Source: an uncultured Clostridia bacterium
GTDB taxonomy: Bacteria > Bacillota > Clostridia > TANB77 > CAG-465
Length of the DNA: 64,000 nucleotides
NCBI GenBank assembly: GCA_947584535.1
Contig: CANPWO010000003.1
Location: forward strand, 3,871-67,870
Direction: 5' to 3'
Shown: positions 9,601 through 41,301 of the stretch, in pieces
Numbering within the stretch: position 1 is the first letter of the stretch
Layout of the letters: each line of letters starts with the position of its first letter
Notes under the pieces: model-generated
What the model was told of the DNA's origin: nothing
Databases searched by the model: none
The model's input: only the letters and a program-made list of their open reading frames with translations
Translations under genes and position numbers: made by a program

Positions 9601-12600
9601 AACAGTAATAAATCCAGTAGAAGTAGAAGTAAATAAACCAGAATTATTACCTGGAATGACAGCAATAACGTTTGATGAAAATGGTCAACCACAAGCAACA
9701 GATGAAAATAATCCAGATTGGTATTCCTATGTAGACCAAGGAAATTATGGAACAGATGCAAAGTTAAGTCATTGGGCAAATGCGCAAACAGCAGATGGAA
9801 GCCAGTGGGTATGGATACCAAGGTATGCATACAAGATAGTAAGACAACCAAACGATTATACAACCGAAGGTGGAGAAATAGACATTAAATTTATGAGCGG
9901 AACAAGTAGTACAAAATATATAGACGAAAATGGAGACTTACAAGATTTACCAAAAGATTATATAGTACATCCAGCATTTACAGATGAAAGTAAAAAAGAA
10001 CCAGCGTATGCAAATGGTGGATGGAATGAAGAGTTAACAGGAATATGGGTAGCAAAATACGAAGCAAGTAAAGGAGAAGGAACAGAAAGTCAATCACAAC
10101 AAACATATCCAAAATTTGTACAAGGAGAAAATTCATATGTAGAAATCAATATAGGAGATATGTTTACATTATGCAAAAATTTAGCAACAGATACTAATAA
10201 CCCATACGGATTTTCTTCTTCAAAAGTAGATACACATCAAATGAAGAATAGTGAATGGGGAGCAGTAGCTTACCTAGCACAAAGTAAATATGGAAGAAAT
10301 GGAGTAGAGGTACAGCAAAACAAAGTTTATAATAATAGTAGTGGAGCAAAAACAGGATATGGAGAAAGCACATCATATCCATACAATACACCAGAAGGAC
10401 AGAAAGCATCAACAACAGGTAATCTATACGGTATATATGATATGAGTGGAGGAGCATATGAATATACAGCAGGATATCTAAATAATGGTAATAGATATTT
10501 AAAAAGCTATGGACAATCACTATTAGATGAAACAAATAATAAAGATAACAAAAAAGGAAGTGGAGCATCAACAAAATACGTATCAATATATAACGTAGGA
10601 GAAAGTGATACTCAAGAAAACAATTATAATGAAGAAACAAACAAAGCAAGAAAAGGAGAAGCAATATGGGAGACATCCACTTCTGGAAATAGTAGCAATG
10701 GAAGTTGGTTTGGCGACTATTCATATTTCTCTGACACGTTGAATCCGTTCTTGAGGCGTGGAGGCAGTTACTATAATGGCGGTACTCTCGCGGGTCTATT
10801 CGGCTTCGACTTACATGATGGCATTGTGTACAGTTACAGCGTTTTTCGTGCAGTGTTATGCAAAAAAATACCAGTAACAAGTATTAAGCTAGATAGAACA
10901 GAAGAAACTGTGTTTATAGAAGAAGGAAAAACAATACAACTTACAGCAACAGTATTACCAGAGAATGCATCAAATAAAGAAGTAACATGGACAACAAATA
11001 ATGAGCAAGTAGCAACAGTAGAAGGTAATGGATTAAATGCAACAGTAACAATAAAAGGAGTAGGTCAAACAAAAATAACAGTAACATCAAAAGAAAATAG
11101 TAATGTAAGTGCTTCATGTATAATAACAGTAATAAATCCAGTAGCAAAAATAGGAAGTGAATATTACGATACACTTCAAGAAGCATTTGATGCAAGTTCA
11201 ACAAACTCAAATACATATTCAGATATACAAGTATTAAAAGATATAACAAATAAAACAGCAACACTAAGTAATAACAAATACGCAAAACTAAATTTAGGAG
11301 CACATACAATAACAAATGACCAAGGAGATAAAGCAACAATAACAAATGAAGGATATATGCAAATAGTAGGAGGAGGAAGTTCAACTATATCAAGTACAGT
11401 TGGAAATGCAATAAAAAATATAAATACATTAACAATAAACACAAGCGGAACAATAACATCAAATCAAGATGCAATAGATAATACAAAAACATTAACAGTA
11501 ACAAAAGGAACAATAACATCAACAGGAAGTGATAGTAATAATAGTCATGGAATAAATAATAGTTCAACGCAAGGAAATGTAAATATAACAGGAGGAAAAA
11601 TTGAAGGACGTGACGGAATAAGAAATAGTGGAACATTAACAATTGCAGGAGGAGTTATAAATTCAACTACAGATGATGCAGTAGAGTTTGTAAATGGAAC
11701 AATAGACATAACAGATGGAGAAGTAACAGGAACTAATGGAATATATAATTCAAATGGAGGAACAGCAACAAACAAAGTATTAACAATAGGAAAAGATAAG
11801 GATTCAGTAAATATAACTAACCCAAAAATAACAGTAACAAATATAGCAGTATATAATGGAACTGAAACATTTACATCAAACTTTTATGATGGAGCAGTAA
11901 CAGGAAATGTACAATTTTATAAACAAGATGAAGTAAATATACCAAAAAGATATGAGATAGTAGTAAATGGAAATACCGCAATATTACAAAAACCAGTAGT
12001 ATATGGAACAAATGGAAATCAAGAAGAAGGAACAGGCAAAGTAAATGCACCAGAGATACTTGAAGGAATGAAGGCAATAAAATTTGCTGAAGATGGAAGT
12101 GGAAAGTCAGAAGAAACAACAACAGATGACCCAGCTTGGTATGCGTACAAAGAAAGCAAACAAGAATTTGGAACAGATAATACAACAAGTAGATGGGCAA
12201 ATGCAGAAACAGAAGATGGAAGCCAGTGGGTATGGATACCAAGGTATGCATACAAGATAGTAAAAGAGCCAGAATATACAGGAAGTGGAAGTTCGCAAAA
12301 AACAACCGCAGGTGGAGAGATAGATATAATATTCTTAAAAGGAACAAGTAATAAGTATGAAGACGAAAATGGAGATGAACAAGAAATACCGAAAGATTAT
12401 ATTGTACATCCAGCATTTAGAGATGAAACAGACACACAATTTGCAAATGGTGGATGGGATAGTGAATTAACAGGAATATGGGTATCAAAATACGAAGCAG
12501 GAAAAGGAGGAACTGAAATAGAAAGTACATCAGGAAAAGCATATCCAAAATTTGTACCAGGACGAACTTCTTATGGAAGTTATGGAAGTCTTAAAATAGG

Positions 12601-13303
12601 AGATATATTCACATTATGCAAAAATCTAAACCAAAGTGGTAATCCATACGGATTTTCTTCTTCAACAGTAGACACACATCAAATGAAGAATAGTGAATGG
12701 GGAGCTTGTGTCTATCTTGCACAAAGTAAATATGGAAGAAATGGAGTAGAGGTAACGCAAAACAAAAAAAATGGTAATAATAGTTTACCTCCAGAAACGG
12801 GATATGGAGCAAGCACATCAGCAACATACAATACACAAAGTGGTCAATTAGCATCAACAACAGGAAACATATACGGAATATATGATATGAGTGGAGGAAC
12901 AATGGAATATACAGCAGGATATCTAAAAGGTGGTACTAGTTATAGTAGTTTAACAACATCCGGACAATCACTAGTAGACGAAACAAATAAAGATGGAGAA
13001 AAGAAATCAACGAAATACGTATCTGTATACGAAGGTAGTAGTTCAAGCTATAGTACAAATTATAACAATGCAAAAAACAGTAAAAGAAAAGGAGAAGCAA
13101 TATGGGAGACATCTAAAAGAGGAGATGGCTATACAAGTTGGTTTGGCGACACTTCATATTTTTCTGAACCGACGTATCCATTCTTGTTGCGTGGAGGTTA
13201 TTCCAGCGAGAGTGGTACTAATGCGGGACTATTCTACTTTAACGGCGGCCTTGGCAATGTGGGCAGTTCCTACGGTTTTCGTGCAGTGTCGGTCCCACTT
13301 TAA
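6638..13303 (+). CDS. giant (2221 aa) multidomain cell-surface protein: N-terminal hydrophobic anchor, 7 Big_2 Ig-like domains, 3 FN3-like domains, a parallel beta-helix-like segment and two FGE-sulfatase-like (SUMF1-fold) modules; no LPXTG
   Basis: Single open frame with GGAGG SD. Big_2 repeats (e.g. ITIDPSEVVLGLDDEQQLRAIITPESADNQDVSWE...). FN3-like repeats (EPLNLKAEV...KYDIEVIAHL). FGE motifs WVWIPRYAYKI, NSEWGAVAYLAQSKYGRNG, YGIYDMSGGAYEYTAGY, RGGS...FRAV occur twice. Confidence 0.9.
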   Translation: MKTGINKVAMKDKKEGISLLVLIITIIVMIILAGAVILSITNNNPVSKANETKVKTDLTALKDEYNNFYSSALFDNVSNTKGYYTDKMNITKEGNIIYKGKVVNEGENNSLASIMPSIVGTEYEGKVFVADGKIYIDNRDKFLSEEQQEWAKEVGINILNEGEVLVLSTEEVSLKISQKERIYATVLPDADSQVEFEIDEQTRARIIEEKENTVDIQGISDGIAILTAKVTAKDGVEIEKKVTVKVNVGDYIKVERITIDPSEVVLGLDDEQQLRAIITPESADNQDVSWEVESQNPQGAVELSQIGVVTGRDVGEAKIIAKGEYGNLTSEVCSVSVIDKTKITLDKQTLQLRKGQKDTLKATVENKNVREGTLTWETSDDAKVGVDQDGNITAKEVGSATITAKYLTKSVSCVVTVEEPLNLKAEVTEARGTIVILKIDADTTYSTIDKIQVRYKEENATEWQTQEITVNAETYSKDDYQITGLTAEKKYDIEVIAHLKDGGQDKKVVLTATPSKIPVESVTISPKPLQIYHGDKTKKLEAKVLPQDATNKKVRWESSQKDIATIDANGTITPVEVGTTIITAISEDDETKRDTCEVEIQEPITFSASVVKESITSSIIPLNIYAKTEYGNITEIKVRYKEKTETEETKWQEITIPEAVNETEYTNEKYQITNLKPYTEYEIEVSVTISSGRSKKETLEVTQTKKIDVSSITIEPTTIQIPLGNTKEIQATLTPKDATFQGLTWESEKTNIATITGEETATDGVAKATIIAKEIGNTTVTVKSKDNEQAIAECQVQVTEPISLTASVDTGGITETVIPVNIQTSTEHGTISKIEVMYKKKDTEDEYTTQNVEIQPDQTEYNGKYEIKNLEPGIEYSIQVKVTITSEQIKEHSKSINDLEGTTKKINVDSITLDKTEETIILGSMDSLQLTATIQPPDATNKLLTWTSNEQTVAEVDQTGKVTIKGVGSAIITVTSQDNESAKAECKITVINPVEVEVNKPELLPGMTAITFDENGQPQATDENNPDWYSYVDQGNYGTDAKLSHWANAQTADGSQWVWIPRYAYKIVRQPNDYTTEGGEIDIKFMSGTSSTKYIDENGDLQDLPKDYIVHPAFTDESKKEPAYANGGWNEELTGIWVAKYEASKGEGTESQSQQTYPKFVQGENSYVEINIGDMFTLCKNLATDTNNPYGFSSSKVDTHQMKNSEWGAVAYLAQSKYGRNGVEVQQNKVYNNSSGAKTGYGESTSYPYNTPEGQKASTTGNLYGIYDMSGGAYEYTAGYLNNGNRYLKSYGQSLLDETNNKDNKKGSGASTKYVSIYNVGESDTQENNYNEETNKARKGEAIWETSTSGNSSNGSWFGDYSYFSDTLNPFLRRGGSYYNGGTLAGLFGFDLHDGIVYSYSVFRAVLCKKIPVTSIKLDRTEETVFIEEGKTIQLTATVLPENASNKEVTWTTNNEQVATVEGNGLNATVTIKGVGQTKITVTSKENSNVSASCIITVINPVAKIGSEYYDTLQEAFDASSTNSNTYSDIQVLKDITNKTATLSNNKYAKLNLGAHTITNDQGDKATITNEGYMQIVGGGSSTISSTVGNAIKNINTLTINTSGTITSNQDAIDNTKTLTVTKGTITSTGSDSNNSHGINNSSTQGNVNITGGKIEGRDGIRNSGTLTIAGGVINSTTDDAVEFVNGTIDITDGEVTGTNGIYNSNGGTATNKVLTIGKDKDSVNITNPKITVTNIAVYNGTETFTSNFYDGAVTGNVQFYKQDEVNIPKRYEIVVNGNTAILQKPVVYGTNGNQEEGTGKVNAPEILEGMKAIKFAEDGSGKSEETTTDDPAWYAYKESKQEFGTDNTTSRWANAETEDGSQWVWIPRYAYKIVKEPEYTGSGSSQKTTAGGEIDIIFLKGTSNKYEDENGDEQEIPKDYIVHPAFRDETDTQFANGGWDSELTGIWVSKYEAGKGGTEIESTSGKAYPKFVPGRTSYGSYGSLKIGDIFTLCKNLNQSGNPYGFSSSTVDTHQMKNSEWGACVYLAQSKYGRNGVEVTQNKKNGNNSLPPETGYGASTSATYNTQSGQLASTTGNIYGIYDMSGGTMEYTAGYLKGGTSYSSLTTSGQSLVDETNKDGEKKSTKYVSVYEGSSSSYSTNYNNAKNSKRKGEAIWETSKRGDGYTSWFGDTSYFSEPTYPFLLRGGYSSESGTNAGLFYFNGGLGNVGSSYGFRAVSVPL
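9608..10866 (+). repeat. intragenic repeat unit 1 (FGE-sulfatase-like module, about 420 codons)
   Basis: Its protein is roughly 60-70% identical to unit 2. It contains a 49-bp stretch (9794-9842) identical to 12215-12263, and near-identical stretches at 10203-10260 and 12645-12700. Confidence 0.8.
12037..13300 (+). repeat. intragenic repeat unit 2 (FGE-sulfatase-like module)
   Basis: Paralogous to 9608..10866 and in frame with it; the offset between the 49-bp cores is 2421 bp. Confidence 0.8.
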
Positions 13304-13892: not shown

Positions 13893-15353
13893 ATGGAATT
13901 ATATAAACTAAGTTTAAAAGAAATTGCAGATAAAATTAAAACAAAACAAGTTAATATAAAAGAAGTTTTAGATAGTGTATATAATAGAATAGACGAAGTT
14001 GAAGATAAACTTGATGCATATATAACACTTGATAAAGAAAATGCATATAAAAGAGCAGAAGAATTACAAGATAGATTAGATAATGGAGAAGATATAGATA
14101 TACTTGGTGGAGTACCTATTGCAATAAAAGATAATATTTGTACTAACGGTTTAAAAACAACTTGTGCTTCAAGAATGTTAGAAGATTTTGTACCAATATA
14201 TGATGCAACAGTAATTACTAAATTAGAACAAGCTGGAGCAATTATACTTGGTAAAACTAATATGGATGAATTTGCTATGGGCTCATCTACAGAAACTTCA
14301 TATATAAAGAAAACTAAAAATCCATATAATACAGAGCATGTGCCTGGTGGCTCAAGTGGTGGTAGTGCAGTAGCTGTATCAGCAGATATGGCATTTGCAT
14401 CTCTTGGAAGTGATACAGGTGGTTCAATAAGACAACCTGCTTCATATTGTAGTGTAGTAGGACTTAAACCAACATACGGTCTTGTATCAAGATTTGGTCT
14501 TATAGCATATGCATCTTCACTAGATCAAATAGGCCCGTTTACAAAAAATGTAGAAGATTCTGCAATAATGCTAAATGTTATATCAGGATACGATAAAAAA
14601 GACACTACATCTGCAAATATAGAGAAAAAAGATTATACAAAATCATTAGTAAATGATATATCAAATATGAAAATTGGTATACCTGATGAATTTGTAAAAG
14701 AAGGTATAAATGAGGAAGTAAAACAAGCATATGATAATGCTATAACTAAATTAGAAAGTCTAGGAGCTGAAATTGTACATATAAATTTAGATTATGCTAA
14801 ATATAGCTTAGCAACATATTATATAATAGCAACTGCAGAAGCATCATCAAATTTAGGTCGTTATGATGGCATAAGATACGGACATAGAGCAAAAGATTTT
14901 GACGACTTAATTGATTTATACAAAAAATCAAGAACAGAAGGTTTCGGAGAAGAAGTAAAAAGAAGAATAATGCTTGGTACATATGTACTTTCTTCAGGAT
15001 ATTATGATGCATATTATAAAAGGGCACAATGTGTTAGAACTCTTATAATTTCTGAATTTAAAAAAGCATTTGAAGAGTGTGATGTAATAGCAATTCCAAC
15101 TGCACCACATACTTCATTTAAATTTAATGAAAAATCAGAAAATCCACTTGAAATGTATCTAGAAGATATATTTACAGTTCCAGTAAATATAGCAGGACTT
15201 CCAGGAATATCAATACCTGCTGGCTTTGATAAAGAAAACTTACCAATAGGCTTGCAAGTAATTGCAAACTCATTTGAAGAAGAAAAATTATTTAAAGTTG
15301 CATATACTTTTGAACAAAATACAGACTTTAGTAAAAAAAGACCAAATATTTAA
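13893..15353 (+). CDS. gatA: Asp/Glu-tRNA amidotransferase subunit A (amidase signature family)
   Basis: 486 aa with the GGSSGGSAVAV amidase signature and KPTYG. Confidence 0.95.
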   Translation: MELYKLSLKEIADKIKTKQVNIKEVLDSVYNRIDEVEDKLDAYITLDKENAYKRAEELQDRLDNGEDIDILGGVPIAIKDNICTNGLKTTCASRMLEDFVPIYDATVITKLEQAGAIILGKTNMDEFAMGSSTETSYIKKTKNPYNTEHVPGGSSGGSAVAVSADMAFASLGSDTGGSIRQPASYCSVVGLKPTYGLVSRFGLIAYASSLDQIGPFTKNVEDSAIMLNVISGYDKKDTTSANIEKKDYTKSLVNDISNMKIGIPDEFVKEGINEEVKQAYDNAITKLESLGAEIVHINLDYAKYSLATYYIIATAEASSNLGRYDGIRYGHRAKDFDDLIDLYKKSRTEGFGEEVKRRIMLGTYVLSSGYYDAYYKRAQCVRTLIISEFKKAFEECDVIAIPTAPHTSFKFNEKSENPLEMYLEDIFTVPVNIAGLPGISIPAGFDKENLPIGLQVIANSFEEEKLFKVAYTFEQNTDFSKKRPNI

Positions 15354-15367
15354 AGGAAGTGATATGT

Positions 15368-17095
15368 ATGTTACAATCTAAACTTATTGGAGATACAAAA
15401 AAAGAATGGCCAAATGAAGCAAGTGTTGTAAGTCACGGTGTTCTTTTAAAAGGTGGCTATATAAAACAAATGGCAACTGGTATATATACATTAATGCCAC
15501 TAGGTAAAAAAGTTATAGCAAAAATAGAAAATATAATTAGAGAAGAAATGAATAAAGTAGGAGCGCAAGAGATTTTAATGCCTGTTGTAGCAACAAAAAA
15601 ATTATGGGATATGTCTGGTAGATATGATAGTGTAGGCTCTGAACTTCTAAGATTTAAAGATAGAAATAACACAGAAATGGTACTTTCAATGACTCATGAA
15701 GAAGCAACAGTATATTCTTTGTTAAGTGAAGCCTCTTCATATCAAAAATATCCATTTTCTGTATATCAATTACAGACAAAATTTAGAGATGAAGCAAGAC
15801 CTCGTGCAGGCCTTATTCGTGTAAGAGAGTTTACAATGAAGGACGCATACTCTTTCCATACTTCACAAGAAAGTTTAGATGAGGAATATGATAAATTCTT
15901 TGAAGCATATAACAATATATACAAAAGAGTTGGGATTCCACAAGTTGTTGCAGTAGCATCTGATACTGGAATAATGGGTGGAAGTGGTGCTCATGAATTT
16001 ATGCTTTTATGTGATAGTGGCGAAGATAAGATAGTTCATTGTTCTTCTTGTAACTACAATGCAAATATGGAAGTAGCATATACAACTAAGTATGATGTAG
16101 TAAATAAAAAAGAAGAAGAGATAGAAAAAATATATACACCAAATATAAAAACTATAGAAGATTTAAAAGAATATACAAAACTTGAAACTTGTAATCTCGG
16201 TAAAGCAGTTATATATAAAAGACTTGATACAGGAAAAACAATTATTGTATTTTTAAGAGCTGACAGAGAAGTAAATGAGACAAAACTTCGTAACTTATTA
16301 AAAGTAGATGATGAAGCTTTAGTACCAAAAAAAGAAGAAAAGGACGATAATATTGTTTATGGCTTTGTAGGACCAGTAAATTTAAATACTGATGCACAAG
16401 TTATATATGATAAATCACTTGAAAATGAAAAATCTTTAGTATTTGGTGCAAATGAAAAAGATTATCATTTAAAAGGAGTAAATATATTAAGAGATGTAGG
16501 AAAAGTAGATTTTGTTGATGTAGCAAAGGTACTTGAAACAGACTATTGCCCTATATGTAATAAAAAAGAATTAACAATTTCAAATGGAATAGAAGTTGGT
16601 AATATATTTAAACTTGGCGATAAATATACTAAAATGTTAAATATGACTTACTCAGATGAAAATGGTAAAACACATTTTCCATTAATGGGTTGTTATGGTA
16701 TTGGTATTGGAAGATTATTTGCTTCAGTACTTGAAGCTAGAGCAACTGAAAATAAACTAAATTTACCACCAAGTATAGCACCATTTGATATACATATATG
16801 TCCACTTGATTATACAAAAAATGAACAAGTAAAAAAGCTTGCTGATGATATATACGAACTTTTGAAATTAAACGGATATGATGTATTACTTGACGATAGA
16901 AACAAAAATGCAGGAGTAAAATTTGCAGATAGTGACTTAATATCTGCACCAATTAGAATTACAGTTAGCAAAAGAAATATTGAAAATGGAGATTTATTAG
17001 AAATAAAAGTATACGATAATGATGAGACTACTCTTGTAACAAAAGACGAATTAGTTAAATATATAGAAGATAAAAGAAAGGAATGGGTATTTTAA
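15368..17095 (+). CDS. proS: prolyl-tRNA synthetase, bacterial type with editing insertion, inside the gat operon
   Basis: Class II motifs TLMPLGKKV, REEMNKVGAQEILMP, FRDEARPRAGLIRVREF and a C-terminal anticodon-binding domain. ATG 15368 has an AAAGGAAG SD; the ORF-track GTG 15359 overlaps the SD. Confidence 0.9.
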   Translation: MLQSKLIGDTKKEWPNEASVVSHGVLLKGGYIKQMATGIYTLMPLGKKVIAKIENIIREEMNKVGAQEILMPVVATKKLWDMSGRYDSVGSELLRFKDRNNTEMVLSMTHEEATVYSLLSEASSYQKYPFSVYQLQTKFRDEARPRAGLIRVREFTMKDAYSFHTSQESLDEEYDKFFEAYNNIYKRVGIPQVVAVASDTGIMGGSGAHEFMLLCDSGEDKIVHCSSCNYNANMEVAYTTKYDVVNKKEEEIEKIYTPNIKTIEDLKEYTKLETCNLGKAVIYKRLDTGKTIIVFLRADREVNETKLRNLLKVDDEALVPKKEEKDDNIVYGFVGPVNLNTDAQVIYDKSLENEKSLVFGANEKDYHLKGVNILRDVGKVDFVDVAKVLETDYCPICNKKELTISNGIEVGNIFKLGDKYTKMLNMTYSDENGKTHFPLMGCYGIGIGRLFASVLEARATENKLNLPPSIAPFDIHICPLDYTKNEQVKKLADDIYELLKLNGYDVLLDDRNKNAGVKFADSDLISAPIRITVSKRNIENGDLLEIKVYDNDETTLVTKDELVKYIEDKRKEWVF

Positions 17096-18534
17096 TGAGA
17101 GAAGATTATGAAGTTGTAATTGGACTTGAAGTTCACGCAGAACTTTCTACAAATACCAAAATATATTGTAATTGTACTACAAAGTTTGGAGCAGATCCAA
17201 ATACACATTGTTGCCCAATTTGTACAGGAATGCCAGGTACTTTGCCAGTACTTAACGAAAAAGTAGTAGAATATGCAATAAAAATGGGACTTGCAACAAA
17301 TTGTGAAATAGCTAAATTTTCTAAGCAAGATAGAAAAAATTATTTTTATCCTGATTTACCAAAAGCATATCAGGTATCACAATATGACCTTCCACTTTGT
17401 GAAAGAGGACATATTGATGTAATGCTAGAAGATGGAGAAAAGAAAAGAATAGGTATAACTAGAATACATATCGAAGAAGATGCAGGAAAATTAATACATG
17501 ATGCATATACAGGGGATACTTTAGTAGATATGAATAGATGCGCTGTACCATTAATTGAAATTGTATCTGAGCCTGATATTAGAAGTGCTAAGGAAGCAGT
17601 AGCATATATGCAAACATTAAAGTCAATTCTTGAATATCTTGAAATATGTGACTGTAAAATGCAAGAAGGATCACTTAGATGTGATGTAAATCTATCTGTT
17701 AGAAAGAAAGGGCAAACAGAATTTGGAACAAGAACAGAAACTAAGAATTTAAATTCTTTTAAAGCAATAGAAAGAGCTATAGAATTTGAAACAGATAGAC
17801 AAATAGAAGAACTAGAAAATGGTGGTACAATATATCAAGAGACAAGAAGATTTGATGATGCAAAAGGTATTGGATATGCAATGCGTTCTAAAGAAGATGC
17901 ACATGACTACAGATATTTCCCAGAGCCTGACCTTGCACCAATTGTAATGAGCGACGAATATGTACAAAATTTAAAAGATAATCTTCCTGAAATGCCTCAT
18001 ATTAAAAAAGAAAGATATATGAAGGAATTTGAACTTAGTGAATATGATGCAAAACATTTAACAGATTCAAAGTATACAGCAAAGTTTTTTGAAAATACAG
18101 TTAAGCTATGTGGCAATGCGAAAGCTGTTGCAAACTGGATAATGAGTGATTTTGCTAAAATGTTAAACGAGTCAGAAATAGAAATACAAGATAGTAAAGT
18201 TACAGAAGAAAATCTAGCTTCTTTAATTAAATTAATTGATTCAGGAAAGATAAGTTCTGCAATAGCTAAAAAAGTGTTTATAGATATGTTTAATACTGGA
18301 GAAGATGCAAATAAAATAGTAGAACAAAAAGGATTAATACAAATTTCTGATGAAGGTGCAATTAAAGAAGTAGTTGAAAAAATAGTAGAAGCTAATCCAA
18401 AATCTGTTGAAGATTATCATAATGGAAAAGATAAAGCTATTGGCTTCTTAGTTGGTCAAATAATGAGAGAAACAAAAGGAAAAGCTAATCCTCAAATTGT
18501 TAACAAGTTATTAAAAGAAATACTAGATAAATAG
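17095..18534 (+). CDS. gatB: Asp/Glu-tRNA amidotransferase subunit B
   Basis: MREDYEVVIGLEVHAEL start typical of GatB. The ATG overlaps the proS stop (TAATG). The ORF-track start 17083 is probably an upstream extension. Confidence 0.93.
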   Translation: MREDYEVVIGLEVHAELSTNTKIYCNCTTKFGADPNTHCCPICTGMPGTLPVLNEKVVEYAIKMGLATNCEIAKFSKQDRKNYFYPDLPKAYQVSQYDLPLCERGHIDVMLEDGEKKRIGITRIHIEEDAGKLIHDAYTGDTLVDMNRCAVPLIEIVSEPDIRSAKEAVAYMQTLKSILEYLEICDCKMQEGSLRCDVNLSVRKKGQTEFGTRTETKNLNSFKAIERAIEFETDRQIEELENGGTIYQETRRFDDAKGIGYAMRSKEDAHDYRYFPEPDLAPIVMSDEYVQNLKDNLPEMPHIKKERYMKEFELSEYDAKHLTDSKYTAKFFENTVKLCGNAKAVANWIMSDFAKMLNESEIEIQDSKVTEENLASLIKLIDSGKISSAIAKKVFIDMFNTGEDANKIVEQKGLIQISDEGAIKEVVEKIVEANPKSVEDYHNGKDKAIGFLVGQIMRETKGKANPQIVNKLLKEILDK

Positions 18535-35299: not shown

Positions 35300-35338
35300 A
35301 TAGCAATGGATTTAACTTTTCATTGCTATTTTGTATTT
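35300..35338 (+). terminator. rho-independent terminator after uvrB
   Basis: ATAGCAATG / CATTGCTAT stem followed by TTTGTATTTTA. Confidence 0.6.
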
Positions 35339-35437
35339 TATTTAAATGTTTAAAATGTAGTACAATATATATTTAATTGTTACTTGCTTTTTTAAACTAT
35401 TTATAGTAATATAATAATAGTAATTAAGGTGGATTTT

Positions 35438-36361
35438 ATGGAGAATATTTTAGAAGCAAAGGTAGTTGAAATAATATTAGATAAATATATATTAAAGCTT
35501 GAAAATAACGAGTACGTTGAAGCAATATTAAAAGGAAATATAAAAAAGAAAAACAGTATATTAGTTGGAGACTATGTAAATGTTATTTTCTCATACGATA
35601 CTTATGTTATTACTAAAATATTAGATAGAAAAAATATGTTGATAAGACCACCTGTAGCAAATATAGATCAACTAATTATTGTACTATCCATATCAAATCC
35701 AAGTTTTGATTATATGTTACTTGACAAAGAACTTGTACTATGTAAATCAAAAAATATAACCCCTATACTATGTATCAATAAAGTAGATTTAATAGAAAAT
35801 AACAATGAATTAAAAGAAGAACTTAATAATATTACACAAATATATAAAAAGTTAGGTATACAGATTATATATACAAGCACTATATCAAATACTGGAATAA
35901 ATGATTTTAAAAATCTACTTAAAGGTAAAACATCTGCTTTTTCAGGGAATTCAGGTGTTGGAAAATCAAGCATTACGAAATTAATTGTACAAGATTTGGA
36001 AGATTATAACAAACTAAGAAATATAGAAATTGGAAATATAAGTAAAAAAAGTAAAAAAGGAAGGCATACTACTAAATATGTTAAATTATATAGTTTAGAT
36101 GAAGACTCATATATACTTGATACACCAGGATTTTCTAGTTTTGAAATAAATGATATATATTACAAAGATTTAAAGAATTACTATGATGATTTTAAAAAAT
36201 ATAGATGCGACTTTGAAGATTGCAATCATGTAAATGAAGATAAAGAAGTATGTAGTATAAAAAAAGCTGTAAATAATAACGAAATTGATAGAAATAGATA
36301 CGAAAGATATGTTTATCTGTTTAATAAACTTAAGGAAATAGATGATAAAAAGTATAAATAA
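35438..36361 (+). CDS. rsgA: ribosome small-subunit-dependent GTPase A (circularly permuted GTPase)
   Basis: G4-G1-G3 order: NKVDL ... GNSGVGKSS ... DTPGF. C-terminal Zn-finger CDFEDCNH. AAGGTGG SD before ATG 35438. Confidence 0.85.
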   Translation: MENILEAKVVEIILDKYILKLENNEYVEAILKGNIKKKNSILVGDYVNVIFSYDTYVITKILDRKNMLIRPPVANIDQLIIVLSISNPSFDYMLLDKELVLCKSKNITPILCINKVDLIENNNELKEELNNITQIYKKLGIQIIYTSTISNTGINDFKNLLKGKTSAFSGNSGVGKSSITKLIVQDLEDYNKLRNIEIGNISKKSKKGRHTTKYVKLYSLDEDSYILDTPGFSSFEINDIYYKDLKNYYDDFKKYRCDFEDCNHVNEDKEVCSIKKAVNNNEIDRNRYERYVYLFNKLKEIDDKKYK

Positions 36362-36373
36362 AAAAGGTAAATT

Positions 36374-36412
36374 ATGAATAAAAATATTGCTTTATTTATA
36401 CTAAATATCAAA
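36374..36412 (+). repeat. duplicated copy of the rpe 5' end (36 of 39 nt identical to 36735-36773)
   Basis: ATGAATAAAAATATTGCTTTATTTATACTAAATATCAAA versus ATGAATAAAAATATTGCTTTATCTATACTAAATGTTAAA. The upstream copy runs into a stop after 20 codons. Confidence 0.7.
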
Positions 36413-36461
36413 TTCAAGTCCTTGTTTTTTAATTAATAATTTAAGAAAGGAGATAATTTAT

Positions 36462-36692
36462 ATGAATATGAAAAAAATTATATCTATAGTGCTAGGAATA
36501 TTAATTATTGTAGTAGCAATAATAATGCCTTTTCATTTAAGTCAAATATGCTATGAATTTGATATGCACCAACAAGAATGGACTTTAAGTGGTTGGGCTG
36601 CAGTTCAAATTCAAGCAACAATTTATGGAATTATAATATGTGTTTTGACTTTAATTTTGGTATTAATGAATGTGTTAAAAAAATCTAAATAA
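36462..36692 (+). CDS. small two-TM membrane protein (76 aa)
   Basis: GAAAGGAGA SD. It lies between the two copies of the rpe 5' segment. Confidence 0.5.
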   Translation: MNMKKIISIVLGILIIVVAIIMPFHLSQICYEFDMHQQEWTLSGWAAVQIQATIYGIIICVLTLILVLMNVLKKSK

Positions 36693-36734
36693 TTTAAATA
36701 TAAATTAGAATTTATTAAAAAGTGGAGTTAAGAT

Positions 36735-38135
36735 ATGAATAAAAATATTGCTTTATCTATACTAAATGTTAAAGACAATGATTTACCAGATTTTTTGCAA
36801 GAATATAAAGAAAGTATAGATAAAATCAGTAAAATAAAAAATAGTAATATGTTTTCATATATTGTGCATTTTGACGTAATGGATGGAAAATTTGTAAACA
36901 ATATAGGAGTAGATATAAAACATATAAAGCTTGCAAAAGAACTTGGTTTTTATGTTGATACACATCTTATGGTGCAAAATCCAATTGAAGATAAATATAT
37001 TGATAATGCTATATTATATGGAACAGACGATATTACGATACATTATGAAATAGAAAATTTTGAATATACGCTTAAATACTTAAATGAAAAAAAGAAGGAA
37101 TTAAAAGCTAAATTAAATAGAGATTTAGTAATTGGAATATCAATAAAACCAAATACAAAAGTAGAAGAAGTATTAAAATATAAAGACATGTTTACTAAAC
37201 TTTTGGTAATGAGTGTTGAACCAGGACTTGGTGGGCAAAAATATATTGATAGCACAAATGAAAAATTAAAGCATGCAAAATTGCTACTTAAAAATAAGAT
37301 TATACAGGTAGATGGAGGAATAAATTTTAATACTATTAGAGAGCCAATTAACATAGGAGTAGATAGTTTAGTTGTAGGAACATATTTAACAAATTCTAAA
37401 GAATTATTAAATAATATACAAAAAATTGAAATAGTAAAGGATATAGAATATTTACCAAAAAATTCAAATATTGAATTTGATAAAAGAATATTACAAATTA
37501 TACCTGGAGGTTATGGAGAAGGAGATATTTTACTTGGTATAACTATACCTAATACAAGAAAAATCGTAAATAAATGGTACAGACAAATTGATATAGCTAT
37601 TTTAGATGAATTTATTTCTTCGAAATATCATGAATATAGAAGATATGCATGTATTACTTTATCAGAAATGATGAATAATAAAAATGTAAAAAACAAGAAA
37701 GAAGAAATATATAATTTTTTTGAAAAGAATATTAGATATGTAAACAACTGGGATTTAACAGATATAGTTGCACCAAATGTATTAGGTAGTTATTTATTTG
37801 GTAAAGAAGAAAAAGTTATTAAATCAGTTTTACTAAAATATATATCAAATAAAAATTTATGGATAAAACGAATTGGAGTAGTTGCTTGTTTAAAATTTGC
37901 AAAAAGTAAAAATAAAGATATACCACTATATATTATTGATAAAGTATTATATAGCAATGAAGAACTTATAAATAAAGCAGTAGGATGGGTATTAAGAGAG
38001 ATATACAAAGTTTATCCAAAAGATATAGTAGACTATCTAAGTAAAAAGAATAAAGAAGAAAAATTACCAAAATTTGTTTTATCATATGCAATTGAAAAAA
38101 TGAGTATAAAAGAAAAACAGATTATTAAAAAGTAA
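36735..38135 (+). CDS. rpe: ribulose-phosphate 3-epimerase fused to a C-terminal AlkD-family DNA-alkylation-repair (HEAT-like) domain
   Basis: Residues 1-230 carry HFDVMDGKFVNNI, THLMV, MSVEPGLGGQKYI and VDGGIN (Rpe). Residues 240-466 align with B. cereus AlkD: GITIPNTRKIVNKWY, KYHEYRRYACITL, NWDLTDIVAPNVLG, NLWIKRIGVVACLKF, AVGWVLREI. Confidence 0.8.
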   Translation: MNKNIALSILNVKDNDLPDFLQEYKESIDKISKIKNSNMFSYIVHFDVMDGKFVNNIGVDIKHIKLAKELGFYVDTHLMVQNPIEDKYIDNAILYGTDDITIHYEIENFEYTLKYLNEKKKELKAKLNRDLVIGISIKPNTKVEEVLKYKDMFTKLLVMSVEPGLGGQKYIDSTNEKLKHAKLLLKNKIIQVDGGINFNTIREPINIGVDSLVVGTYLTNSKELLNNIQKIEIVKDIEYLPKNSNIEFDKRILQIIPGGYGEGDILLGITIPNTRKIVNKWYRQIDIAILDEFISSKYHEYRRYACITLSEMMNNKNVKNKKEEIYNFFEKNIRYVNNWDLTDIVAPNVLGSYLFGKEEKVIKSVLLKYISNKNLWIKRIGVVACLKFAKSKNKDIPLYIIDKVLYSNEELINKAVGWVLREIYKVYPKDIVDYLSKKNKEEKLPKFVLSYAIEKMSIKEKQIIKK

Positions 38136-38158
38136 TATTTTAGGGAGGTATATTAGTT

Positions 38159-39235
38159 ATGAAAAAAATAGCAATAATGACTGCAGGTGGAGATTGTGCA
38201 GGTTTAAATAGTGTAATTAAATCAGTAGTAATGTCTGCTGCAAATAAGGGTATGAAAGTAATAGGTATTCTTGATGGATATATTGGTTTTGTTGAAGGAA
38301 AATATATACATTTAGATAAAAGAAGCGTATATAATATTGAAAATCAAGGTGGAACAATACTTGGTTCTTCAAATAAAGAATGTCCTTTTCATTATCCAGT
38401 TGATGTTAAAAAAGGAAAATATGAAGATAAAGTTGCATCATCTATTGAACAATTAAGAAAAATAGGCGTTGAAGGAATGATAATAATAGGTGGAGATGGT
38501 ACACTTGATTCAGCAAGAGTAATAAATGAAGCTGGTATGCCTGTAATTGGAATTCCAAAAACAATAGATAATGATATGTCAGGTAGTAACCCAACAATTG
38601 GTTTTGAAACTGCAATTGAAAATGCAGTTATGGCAATAAGAAAATTAAAAACTACAGCATATTCACATAGGAGAGTTTTTGTTGTAGAAATGATGGGTAG
38701 AACATCTGGATACTTAACACTATATGGTGGATTTGCTTCAGGTGCAGATATAATTTTACTTCCAGAACGTGATTATAATCTAGATGTAGTTTGTAACAAA
38801 GTAAAAGAAATTATGGAGTCAGGACAAAGGTATGTCATTATTGCAGCCTCTGAAGCTTGTAAAGAGCAAGGAAAGAGTGAAACTATTGCAAGGGTATTAG
38901 AAGATAGCTTTGAGAAGAAAAGATATGGTGGTATTGCTGAAAAACTTTCAGCACAAATTGAACAAATTACTGGCTATGAAACTCGTCCTATGGTACTTGG
39001 ACATTTACAAAGAGGTGGAGAACCTTGTACAGCAGATATTCTTCTTGGAGCAAGACTTGGAGATTATGCACTAAATTTACTTGCAGACGATAGGTTTGGC
39101 TATATAGTTGGGGCAAAAGAAAATGAGCTAATTAAAACTAGATTCCCTAAAACAAGAGAGCCAAGAATTCTTGACTTAGACGATAATGATATATCAAGAA
39201 CAGCTCGTGATATGGGTATATGTTTTGGTGTATAA
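38159..39235 (+). CDS. pfkA: 6-phosphofructokinase
   Basis: MTAGGDCAGLNSVI, GGDGTLDSA and MGRTSGYL motifs of the PFK family. Confidence 0.9.
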   Translation: MKKIAIMTAGGDCAGLNSVIKSVVMSAANKGMKVIGILDGYIGFVEGKYIHLDKRSVYNIENQGGTILGSSNKECPFHYPVDVKKGKYEDKVASSIEQLRKIGVEGMIIIGGDGTLDSARVINEAGMPVIGIPKTIDNDMSGSNPTIGFETAIENAVMAIRKLKTTAYSHRRVFVVEMMGRTSGYLTLYGGFASGADIILLPERDYNLDVVCNKVKEIMESGQRYVIIAASEACKEQGKSETIARVLEDSFEKKRYGGIAEKLSAQIEQITGYETRPMVLGHLQRGGEPCTADILLGARLGDYALNLLADDRFGYIVGAKENELIKTRFPKTREPRILDLDDNDISRTARDMGICFGV

Positions 39236-39269
39236 AATAATATTATATAGAAAATAGGTGAAAATTAAT

Positions 39270-39875
39270 TTGAAATTATTACTCGCAAGCAATAATAAAT
39301 CTAAAGCAAAAGAAATAAAAGACATATTAGGTGAAGAGTATAAAATTCATACTTTATTAGATTTCGATTGTAAAAATATTCCTCAGATTGAAGAAGATCA
39401 AGATACTTTTAAGGCTAATGCTTTAAAAAAGGCAAAATTAATTGCTGAAATTTTTAATATACCAACTATAAGTGATGATAGTGGAATAGAAATTTTAGCA
39501 TTAAATAACTGGCCTGGTGTATATACTAAAAGACTTGATAAATCTGGAATTGGTGAAAAAATGTCTACAGTAGAAAGAAATAAGTATATTTTAGATAAAG
39601 CAAAAGATATTGAGGATAGAACAGTTATATGGAAAACTGCTATTGCAATATATTTCCCAAACGAGAATTATAAAGTCTTTGAAGGAATAGTTGAAGGGGA
39701 GCTTGCTTATGAGATAGATGGGGATAATGGTTTTGCATTTGATAGTATTTTTAAGATTAAAGGAACAGATAAAACAATTGCTTGTCTATCTTCAGAAGAA
39801 AAAAATAGTATTAGTCCAAGAAAAATAGCACTTGAACAATTAAAAGAGTATCTATCAAGTTATATAAAAAAGTAA
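39270..39875 (+). CDS. rdgB: non-canonical purine NTP pyrophosphatase (RdgB/HAM1 family)
   Basis: LLLASNNKSKAKEIKDIL N-terminus and the family SDDSG motif. TTG at 39270 with a GGTG SD; the ORF-track GTG 39258 overlaps the SD. Confidence 0.8.
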   Translation: MKLLLASNNKSKAKEIKDILGEEYKIHTLLDFDCKNIPQIEEDQDTFKANALKKAKLIAEIFNIPTISDDSGIEILALNNWPGVYTKRLDKSGIGEKMSTVERNKYILDKAKDIEDRTVIWKTAIAIYFPNENYKVFEGIVEGELAYEIDGDNGFAFDSIFKIKGTDKTIACLSSEEKNSISPRKIALEQLKEYLSSYIKK

Positions 39876-39894
39876 TTTAATATATTTATATATA

Positions 39895-39924
39895 ACATCT
39901 ACATTTATTTGTAGGTGTTTTTTT
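39895..39924 (+). terminator. rho-independent terminator after rdgB
   Basis: ACATCTACA / TGTAGGTGT stem followed by a T6 run. Confidence 0.6.
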
Positions 39925-39934
39925 ATAAAAATAT

Positions 39935-39946
39935 GAACTTTTGTTT
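39935..39946 (+). promoter_or_regulatory. candidate LexA (Cheo-type) box GAACTTTTGTTT overlapping the lexA -35
   Basis: GAAC-N4-GTTT differs by one base from the Firmicute GAAC-N4-GTTC consensus and overlaps TTGACA at 39945-39950. Confidence 0.45.
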
Positions 39947-39973
39947 GACAAGATAATATATATATGATATAAT
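39945..39973 (+). promoter_or_regulatory. sigma-A promoter TTGACA-17-TATAAT (perfect consensus) for lexA
   Basis: -35 at 39945-39950 and -10 at 39968-39973. GGAGGA SD before ATG 40005. Confidence 0.6.
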
Positions 39974-40004
39974 AAAACAAACATAAGTTTTAGGAGGAAT
40001 TTAT

Positions 40005-40613
40005 ATGAATAATACAACATTAAACACTCAAGAAGAGAGGGTTTTTAAGTACATTAAAGAGAAAATACAAACTACTGGCTATCCACCATCTGTAAGAGAA
40101 ATATGTGCAGCTTTAGGTTTTAAATCAACATCATCTGCTCATCAGTATATAGAAAGATTAGCAGATAAAGGCTATATTTCTAAAGATGATTTAAAAACTA
40201 GAGCAATTAAAATAGTTGGTGCTGAATCAACTATACCACTTCCAATTGTAGGAAAAGTTGCAGCAGGAGAACCAATTTTAGCTCAAGAAAATATTGAAGA
40301 TTACTTTGCAATTGGAGAAAGTTTCTTTAGTAAAGATTCACTAAAAAATGATAATTTTATTTTAAAAGTGCAAGGTGAAAGTATGATTAATGCAGGTATT
40401 AATGATGGAGACTACATTATTGTTTCAAAACAAAATACTGCTAGAAATGGTCAAATAGTTGTTGCAATGATTGATGGAGATGCAACTGTAAAAACATTCT
40501 ATAAAGAAAAAGACCATGTTAGACTTCAACCTGAAAATGATACTATGGAGCCAATTATTGTTAGAGATGTAGAAATAGTAGGTAAAGTAATAGGATTATT
40601 TAGAAAGATTTAA
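40005..40613 (+). CDS. lexA: SOS repressor LexA
   Basis: N-terminal winged HTH and C-terminal S24 peptidase domain with GESMINAGINDGD and the catalytic Ser/Lys region. Confidence 0.95.
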   Translation: MNNTTLNTQEERVFKYIKEKIQTTGYPPSVREICAALGFKSTSSAHQYIERLADKGYISKDDLKTRAIKIVGAESTIPLPIVGKVAAGEPILAQENIEDYFAIGESFFSKDSLKNDNFILKVQGESMINAGINDGDYIIVSKQNTARNGQIVVAMIDGDATVKTFYKEKDHVRLQPENDTMEPIIVRDVEIVGKVIGLFRKI

Positions 40614-40623
40614 AGCTTTTATG

Positions 40624-40662
40624 AACAAGTTTTGTATTTAATTATATAAAGCTTGTTTTTTT
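40624..40662 (+). terminator. rho-independent terminator after lexA
   Basis: AACAAGTTTT / AAAGCTTGTT stem, 14-nt loop, then a T7 run. Confidence 0.55.
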
Positions 40663-40667
40663 CTGTA

Positions 40668-40694
40668 ACACAACTATTTTTTTATCATAAAATA
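40668..40694 (+). promoter_or_regulatory. possible sigma-K-type sporulation promoter AC-16-CATAAAATA upstream of dpaB
   Basis: AC at 40668-40669 and CATAAAATA at 40686-40694 match the mother-cell SigK consensus AC-N16/17-CATAnnnTA. This is inference only. Confidence 0.35.
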
Positions 40695-40716
40695 TTTCAT
40701 AAGGAGGAATATACTT

Positions 40717-41301
40717 ATGGAGCTAAAAGATAAAAAAATTGGATTTGCAATAACTGGTTCCTTTTGTAATTTTAAAGAAACAAAAGGAGTTTTAGAGGAA
40801 ATAAAAAAAGAAGGGGTAAAAGAGATTATACCTATTGTATCTTATTCAACAAAAGATTTTGACACTAGATTTTATAAAGCAAAAGAATATATAAAAATGG
40901 TGGAGGATACAACTAATAATAAAGTAATAGATACAATTGTAAAAGCTGAGCCTATAGGGCCTAAAAATATGGTGGATTTAATTGTTGTATGTCCTTGTAC
41001 AGGAAATACACTTGCAAAACTTGCAAATGGAGTTACTGATACACCTGTACTTATGGCTATTAAAAGCCATATTAGAAATAATAAACCTGTTGTAATAGGA
41101 GTATCTACTAATGATGGATTAGGAGTAACATTAAAAAATATTGGAATTGTATTAAATACTAAAAATATGTTTTTTGTGCCATTTAGACAAGATGACTGTA
41201 ACTCAAAACCAAAGTCTTTAGTGCTAGATTATAATTACATAATCAATACAATAAAATTAGCATTTCAAGGTAAGCAAATACAACCTATTCTTTCTAAATA
41301 A
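40717..41301 (+). CDS. dpaB: dipicolinate synthase subunit B (SpoVFB-like flavoprotein)
   Basis: 194 aa collinear with B. subtilis SpoVFB: KIGFAITGS, DTIVKAEPIGPK, CTGNTLAKLANGVTDTPVLMA, VSTNDGLG, FFVPFRQDD, QPIL. Confidence 0.85.
   Translation: MELKDKKIGFAITGSFCNFKETKGVLEEIKKEGVKEIIPIVSYSTKDFDTRFYKAKEYIKMVEDTTNNKVIDTIVKAEPIGPKNMVDLIVVCPCTGNTLAKLANGVTDTPVLMAIKSHIRNNKPVVIGVSTNDGLGVTLKNIGIVLNTKNMFFVPFRQDDCNSKPKSLVLDYNYIINTIKLAFQGKQIQPILSK

Follow-up and report, generated by a model that had tools for sequence, protein, structure and literature searches.

The question raised by this locus is whether a pentose-phosphate enzyme and a DNA-repair enzyme have truly been joined in one polypeptide and, if so, whether the two work together. 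The gene concerned lies in a 64,000-nucleotide stretch of contig CANPWO010000003.1 from an uncultured Clostridia bacterium; the whole of this stretch is referred to here as the window. The original prediction was of a single 466-aa open reading frame (ORF) in which a complete ribulose-phosphate 3-epimerase (Rpe) is followed by an AlkD-type DNA alkylation repair domain, and it offered two readings, a neutral fusion or a coupling of the two functions. The ORF listing and the matches to PF00834 and PF08713 confirmed the single two-domain ORF. The rpe::alkD gene is real, both of its halves are under purifying selection, and it probably represents a lineage-specific bifunctional fusion of two enzymes that act independently, with no mechanistic coupling. 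Of the two readings, the evidence favours a neutral or opportunistic fusion and disfavours coupling, because nested lineages have lost the AlkD half or keep it in truncated form, the partners of PF08713 are many and no rpe-alkD neighbourhood is seen outside the clade among 75 stand-alone alkD loci.

The ORF runs uninterrupted from ATG to TAA and is preceded, 7 nt 5' of the ATG, by the Shine-Dalgarno sequence GTGGAG. At the window's G+C content of 26.7%, chance stop codons are frequent, so an ORF of such length is not a random product. An identical 466-aa protein, flanked by the same genes, was found on eight contigs from independent assemblies of several samples. When 5.8 billion proteins were searched with a word index, 222 matches were obtained, and the best 120 clusters of these (at 90% identity) were used in the analyses below. 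All 120 were full-length two-domain proteins, 45−100% identical and 426−504 aa in length. A missed stop or frameshift between the domains, raised earlier as a point to check, was not found in the independent assemblies or in more than 100 homologues: across the eight contigs and the alignment of at least 120 homologue clusters, the junction was continuous in one reading frame. Residues 200 to 311 include no in-frame ATG, GTG or TTG from which a complete AlkD domain could be separately translated, and its translation from an internal start was rejected. Promoter-like matches inside the gene were no commoner than in shuffled sequences. The ratio of non-synonymous to synonymous substitution (dN/dS, Nei-Gojobori), measured against three close relatives of 91, 86 and 73% identity, was 0.12−0.31 for the Rpe half and 0.14−0.26 for the AlkD half.

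The C-terminal half had been proposed to be a HEAT-like-repeat domain of the AlkD type, and this was borne out over about 240 residues. Residues 262−456 matched positions 23−213 of the profile PF08713 (DNA_alkylation) at E = 7.5e-42, scoring 143.9 bits (cut-off 21), a strong outcome for the profile check that had been suggested for this half. A sequence search of the PDB returned Bacillus cereus AlkD (3BVS and others) at E = 2e-15; the motifs NNWDLTDIVAPNVLG, NLWIKRIGVVACLKF and AVGWVLREI aligned, as claimed, with SWWDSVDSIVPTFLG, NIWLQRAAILFQLKY and AIGWVLREY of 3BVS. The protein was also modelled with AlphaFold2 (AF2) from the 120-sequence alignment, giving a mean predicted local distance difference test (pLDDT) of 96 and a predicted template modelling score (pTM) of 0.92. 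Residues 224−466 are all-helical in this model, and a Foldseek search of the PDB matched them to AlkD with template modelling (TM) scores of 0.68−0.77 over 221−233 columns, the AlkD chain itself having about 226 residues.

The residues on which AlkD activity depends have equivalents in the fusion. In B. cereus AlkD, activity was abolished in the mutants W109A, D113N and R148A (PMC1874660), and the mechanism, which does without base flipping, has Trp109, Asp113 and Trp187 as its three catalytic residues (PMC8626424). The corresponding W339, D343 and R379 were present in 120 of the 120 homologues and W418 in 117, while W376 and R421 were each found in all 120. Helix B of the N-terminal cap, which is missing from the inactive AlkD2 (PMC4433238), sits in the AF2 model between helices 224−238 (A) and 271−281 (C). 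Lys or Arg occupied position 250 in 77/120 homologues and position 251 in 83/120. A beta-hairpin of the AlkF/AlkG type was not found in residues 224−466 of the model, where DSSP assigned only isolated single-residue bridges. In the sequence search of the PDB, the structures of AlkD2, AlkF and AlkG were unmatched at E ≤ 1.

These data bear directly on the alternative that the AlkD-like half has ceased to be a glycosylase, in the manner of AlkD2, AlkF or AlkG, and now serves Rpe as a non-catalytic appendage that binds DNA or is purely structural. Structural kin of AlkD that lack excision activity do exist (PMC4433238), and identity to B. cereus AlkD is just 21−23% in the structural alignment. 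Furthermore, two shortened relatives (P0128 and P0133, described below) retain just ~85 residues of the cap, comprising helices A, C, D and E, and the survival of this remnant is a hint of packing between cap and barrel, and perhaps of a structural role for the cap. A mere scaffold, however, would have no need of the catalytic triad. The conservation of W339, D343, R379 and W418, the presence of a B-helix with basic residues, the absence of the hairpin from the model and the dN/dS of this half all argue against an appendage, which is considered unlikely.

For the N-terminal half, the claim of a complete Rpe TIM barrel also held. PF00834 (Ribul_P_3_epim) matched residues 29−218 at E = 2e-34 (119.1 bits against a gathering cut-off of 21.1), the PDB sequence search returned Rpe structures, with 4NU7 at E = 1.7e-21, and Foldseek gave target-normalised TM scores of 0.81−0.87 to the Rpe structures 4NU7, 3OVP, 2FLI, 1TQJ and 3INP. 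Eight alternating strand/helix units were predicted by AF2. The motifs HFDVMDGKFV, MSVEPGLGGQKYI and VDGGIN that had been named earlier were all present and aligned to solved Rpe structures. Residues S8, H45, D47, M49, M159, D193, G194, G195 and G215 were invariant in the 120 homologues, and H77 and M79 were each found in 119. The metal, catalytic, Met-cushion and phosphate-loop roles assigned to these residues are those established for the Streptococcus pyogenes and human RPE structures.

The N-terminal half could instead be a paralogue specific for a different ketose phosphate, or be inactive, with a canonical rpe elsewhere in the genome. Its scores fall under the NCBIfam equivalog and subfamily cut-offs, and relative to the solved Rpe structures it carries lineage-specific insertions at about residues 12−40 and 105−130. 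Nevertheless, the metal, catalytic, Met-cushion and phosphate-loop residues are all kept, the best-scoring NCBIfam and PDB matches are to Rpe and not to allulose-6-phosphate epimerase, and no second rpe was found within the 64-kb window. The gene also occupies the classical rsgA-rpe slot, as originally stated: rsgA (PF03193) precedes it with a 76-aa ORF alone between, and unfused proteins of the same divergent type are found in this slot too, or beside rpiB and pfkA. A paralogue or inactive protein is therefore distinctly unlikely, and the N-terminal half is better regarded as a divergent Rpe, for which residue retention and synteny suggest specificity for ribulose 5-phosphate (Ru5P).

The two domains meet in a single bridging helix, residues 224−238. 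By alignment, it is equivalent to the final helix in stand-alone Rpe (P0125, P0127) and, at the same time, to helix A in the stand-alone AlkD homologue P0138. With one helix common to the end of Rpe and the start of AlkD, there is no linker between the domains, and the pTM of the model suggests a fixed inter-domain geometry. The junction segment was the least conserved part of the protein, with a mean pairwise identity of 0.42 compared to 0.53 and 0.50 for the two domains.

That the architecture is not a standard one was supported by its distribution. An exhaustive HMMER scan of 1.84 billion representatives clustered at 50% identity yielded only five full-length fusion clusters (P0020, P0036, P0070, P0121 and P0122), all from uncultured Clostridia, together with the junction-spanning fragments P0123 and P0124. 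Among GTDB species representatives, at least five full-length fusion loci were found (L005−L009), all of them in metagenome-assembled genomes of uncultured Clostridia or Bacillota. Unfused Rpe of the same divergent type was encoded in related genomes at two further loci, L088, with the order rlmN-PP2C-prkC-rsgA-(50 aa)-rpe(237 aa)-pfkA, and L091, with the order rsgA-rpe(223 aa)-pfkA. The protein from L088 (P0125) has no AlkD half and its closest relatives are fusions, consistent with a clean loss. P0128 (L090, positions 1215−2147, in the order rpiB-rpe'-pfkA) and P0133, of 303−310 aa, consist of an intact Rpe and the ~85 AlkD-cap residues; both helix B and all of the sequence starting at the catalytic WD motif have been lost. 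Since these two proteins are 42% identical and their deletion borders differ, it appears that decay of the glycosylase occurred on more than one occasion, with the helical remnant spared.

In a neighbour-joining (NJ) tree of the Rpe domain, P0125, P0128 and P0133 were placed among the fusions, which were also their best matches (55−58% identity), and more distant stand-alone sequences were basal. A fast NJ bootstrap recovered the boundary between the basal stand-alone sequences and the fusion clade in 7 of 500 replicates and a clade of fusions only in 0 of 500. The most economical account of these data, though not a proven one, is that alkD was captured in frame once, long ago, between rpe and pfkA and that it was occasionally lost or degraded afterwards. 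The G+C content at third codon positions (GC3) was 0.13 and 0.10 in the two halves, which fits an old fusion event, and recent horizontal gain of the AlkD half was rejected because composition is uniform over the gene. No split rpe/alkD intermediate was found. The closest stand-alone AlkD relatives among the matches listed were 36−43% identical and came from Patescibacteria, DPANN archaea, Bacteroidales and others; with relatives scattered over taxa in this way, no donor can be named.

Taken on this evidence, the favoured reading is that of two enzymes acting independently within one chain. The N-terminal half (residues 1 to about 232) would be a housekeeping Rpe interconverting Ru5P and xylulose 5-phosphate. 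His45, Asp47, His77 and Asp193 would hold a divalent metal, Asp47 and Asp193 would serve as the acid/base pair, three Met residues would cushion the enediolate and Gly-rich loops would bind the phosphate. The C-terminal half (residues about 224 to 466) would be an AlkD-type HEAT-like-repeat DNA glycosylase, whose concave basic surface may track the DNA backbone with no base flipping. Trp339 and Trp418 would make CH-pi contacts to the deoxyribose of the lesion, while Asp343, tuned by Arg379, would stabilise both the oxocarbenium and the nucleophilic water. Excision would release cationic N3- or N7-alkylpurines and leave the abasic site to base-excision repair. In evolutionary terms, the ancestor of an uncultured clade of ~27% GC Clostridia would have gained an alkD module between rpe and pfkA. 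Through in-frame fusion, helix A of AlkD would have become one with the final helix of the barrel, giving a rigid two-domain protein. Its retention may reflect two activities that are each useful and are constitutively co-expressed, and not coupled chemistries.

Several points weigh against this reading. Proteins with the AlkD-like fold and HEAT-like repeats, namely AlkD2, AlkF and AlkG, have no glycosylase activity (PMC4433238), and the retained AlkD residues are merely suggestive of it here. The Rpe half scored under the NCBIfam cut-offs, with 118.3 against 212.6 for TIGR01163 and 151.2 against 165 for NF004076, so its exact substrate is not certified by these models. The high pTM together with the seamless helix could reflect a functional interface. 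Lastly, the NJ tree behind the interpretation of secondary loss is without bootstrap support for its deep branches.

Functional coupling could take the form of an oligomeric Rpe that scaffolds several AlkD domains for DNA scanning, or of mutual regulation between DNA-damage binding and pentose-phosphate flux through the rigid interface. The seamless junction, with its single common helix and the pTM of 0.92, speaks for such an arrangement, as does the retention of the fusion across a clade spanning 45−100% identity. The predicted transcription unit includes the nucleotide-pool sanitiser rdgB, with uvrB and lexA nearby, and the AlkD-cap remnant kept in the shortened forms would be compatible with a functional interface. 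Against these points, the AlkD half has been lost cleanly (P0125, L088) or has decayed (P0128, P0133) with Rpe intact at the same locus, the junction is the segment of lowest identity and the unit has no preceding LexA box. Outside the clade, none of 75 stand-alone alkD loci had rpe within 6 kb, and a conserved rpe-alkD neighbourhood as precursor or functional link was rejected on this basis.

The range of proteins to which AlkD-like domains are joined argues in the same direction. PF08713 is a promiscuous fusion partner, found with many unrelated proteins: HisA, SNase, Y_phosphatase3, GNAT, MsrA, HhH-GPD, GIY-YIG, a cytidylyltransferase, methyltransferases and a response-regulator receiver fragment. 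Database entries with PF08713 fusions include P0165, P0201, P0163, P0260, P0134, P0286, P0345 and P0368. The sole other barrel fusion was P0256 (WP_146820883.1), a 470-aa protein of Candidatus Deianiraea vastatrix with a complete HisA barrel (PF00977) and a complete PF08713 domain. Here too the AlkD-like domain is at the C-terminus of a phosphate-binding TIM barrel, in an independent fusion. No second HisA::AlkD example was found among the 5.8 billion proteins, and recurrent fusion of AlkD to ribulose-phosphate-binding barrels was rejected, P0256 being a singleton. Coupling in either form is quite improbable. It is very improbable that Rpe::AlkD constitutes a functional unit, whether as a multivalent DNA scanner on oligomeric Rpe or through an allosteric link between the activities; if such a link were true, alkylation damage would adjust pentose-phosphate flux (ribose 5-phosphate and NADPH for repair), or the reverse.

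A merger of two neighbouring genes by sequencing or assembly error, for which no supporting point was found, was rejected as next to impossible given the eight identical contigs of independent assembly, at least 120 homologue clusters unbroken through the junction, purifying selection over the entire gene and a second domain with no start codon for its own translation.

Like B. cereus AlkD (3BVS, 3JX7, 5CL3), the C-terminal half is an all-helical HEAT-like-repeat solenoid of ~230 residues with an ABC N-terminal cap that includes the B-helix, and with equivalents of Trp109, Asp113, Trp187 and Arg148. Apart from the low identity given above, it differs in that helix A is merged with the last Rpe helix, whereas AlkD is stand-alone, and in a PGGYGEGD insertion after helix B, as is typical of one large, uncharacterised subgroup within PF08713. 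The HEAT-like-repeat scaffold is shared with Streptococcus mutans AlkD2 and B. cereus AlkF and AlkG; AlkD2 is without the B-helix and AlkF/AlkG have the beta-hairpin (PMC4433238), whereas the model of the fusion shows a B-helix but not the hairpin. The N-terminal half shares with the Rpe of S. pyogenes (2FLI), human (3OVP) and Toxoplasma gondii (4NU7) the barrel, the His/Asp/His/Asp metal site, the Met cushion and the phosphate loops. It departs from known Rpe in its scores under the TIGR01163 and NF004076 cut-offs, its two insertions and the 240-residue C-terminal DNA-repair domain. The gene follows rsgA, as in the prkC-cpgA-rpe operon of Bacillus. In combining an AlkD-like domain with an unrelated enzyme, the protein resembles HisA::AlkD and the fusions with SNase, Y_phosphatase3, GNAT, MsrA, HhH-GPD and GIY-YIG, and with HisA::AlkD it shares an N-terminal phosphate-binding TIM barrel as the partner. 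HisA::AlkD is, however, one protein from one genome, while Rpe::AlkD forms a diversified family that keeps its synteny and numbers at least 120 clusters when grouped at 90% identity.

Full-text literature searches returned no paper describing the Rpe::AlkD architecture. Public databases hold it under names assigned automatically, 'DNA alkylation repair protein' or 'ribulose-phosphate 3-epimerase', and with such single-function names metabolic reconstructions of these uncultured Clostridia can wrongly lack either Rpe or an alkylation glycosylase. The fusion adds a conserved natural architecture to the HEAT-like-repeat glycosylase superfamily, an AlkD cap welded to a TIM barrel via a common helix, and could serve structural work on the large uncharacterised 'GGYGEGD'-type subgroup of PF08713. 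It also calls for caution with Rosetta-stone reasoning, since the evidence argues against deducing from the fusion that base-excision repair and the pentose-phosphate pathway are functionally linked. Rather than a surprising or new mechanism, it is probably an opportunistic joining of two enzymes.

Table 1. Features of the rpe::alkD gene and its neighbours, with positions in the window and, where applicable, residues of the 466-aa protein.
Feature	Residues	Position	Strand	Basis or remark
rsgA		35429..36361	+	PF03193; position kept in L005-L008 and L086-L088
76-aa ORF		36462..36692	+	Hydrophobic, membrane-like; between rsgA and fusion
Ribosome-binding site AAGTGGAG		36720..36727	+	7 nt before ATG; read from sequence
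rpe::alkD fusion gene	1-466	36735..38135	+	ORF listing; two Pfam domains; identical protein on 8 contigs
Rpe (beta/alpha)8 barrel	1-222	36735..37400	+	PF00834, PDB matches, Foldseek, AF2 model
HFDVMD, metal ligands His45 and Asp47, Met49	45-50	36867..36884	+	Aligns with HLDIMD of 4NU7
DTHLMV, metal ligand His77, Met79	75-80	36957..36974	+	Aligns with DVHLMV of Rpe structures
MSVEPGLGGQ, Met159 and phosphate-binding loop	159-168	37209..37238	+	M159, G164, G166 and Q168 invariant
VDGGIN, catalytic/metal-binding Asp193 and GG phosphate loop	192-197	37308..37325	+	Conserved in homologues
AlkD-type HEAT-like-repeat domain	224-466	37404..38132	+	PF08713, 3BVS match, Foldseek, all-helical model
Bridging helix	224-238	37404..37448	+	DSSP on AF2 model
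Helix B of N-terminal cap, IEFDKRI, basic K250 and R251	246-252	37470..37490	+	DSSP on model
NNWDLTD; W339 = AlkD Trp109, D343 = catalytic Asp113	337-343	37743..37763	+	Aligns with SWWDSVD of AlkD
WIKR; R379 = AlkD Arg148	376-379	37860..37871	+	Aligns with WLQR of AlkD
GWVLRE; W418 = AlkD Trp187	417-422	37983..38000	+	Aligns with GWVLRE of AlkD
pfkA (6-phosphofructokinase)		38159..39235	+	PF00365; 23 nt 3' of fusion
rdgB (Ham1/RdgB-like non-canonical NTP pyrophosphatase)		39258..39875	+	PF01725; last gene before terminator-like site

Terminator-like hairpins at 35300−35329 (after uvrB) and 39894−39919 (after rdgB) bracket rsgA, the 76-aa ORF, rpe::alkD, pfkA and rdgB. A transcription unit rsgA-rpe::alkD-pfkA-rdgB, constitutively co-expressed with its housekeeping genes, is predicted from this arrangement and from the absence of a preceding LexA-type box. 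In relatives, pfkA is conserved as the gene following the fusion or unfused rpe, and the order rsgA, fusion, pfkA, lexA, flavoprotein and rimO/miaB-like gene is kept in GTDB relatives. The 76-aa ORF gave no Pfam match. It was called as a gene on the contigs with the identical protein (L001−L004) and is absent from the 73−91% identical relatives, in which the fusion starts 12−13 bp after rsgA (L085−L087); a 50-aa gene takes its slot in L088 and L089.

No LexA-type box was found before the fusion unit, and an exact GAAC-N4-GTTC occurs nowhere in the 64-kb window, including before uvrB. The sole well-placed site with one mismatch was at the lexA promoter, and SOS regulation of the fusion was rejected. 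The lexA gene itself (40005..40613) is preceded by a perfect TTGACA-17-TATAAT promoter with an extended TG (39935..39973, + strand). The one-mismatch LexA box of the Cheo type, GAACTTTTGTTT, overlaps the -35 element of this promoter and is probably the site of lexA autoregulation.

When the region 35429..41301 of the window was compared with L005−L009, identity was 46−52% for the fusion, 53−55% for rsgA, 68−80% for pfkA and 83−84% for lexA. Both halves of the fusion evolve fast, yet under purifying selection, and rsgA is likewise far more diverged than pfkA and lexA.

Two further features of the window were noted. A 2221-aa ORF at 6638..13303 (+), in which FN3-like repeats accompany six or more Ig-like domains of the Big_2 type, presumably encodes a giant surface or adhesin protein. 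At 13893..18534 (+), a complete gene for a prolyl-tRNA synthetase with an editing domain (15359..17095) lies between gatA (amidase, 13893..15353) and gatB (17083..18534), overlapping gatB by 13 nt, which is an unusual interruption of a gatCAB operon.

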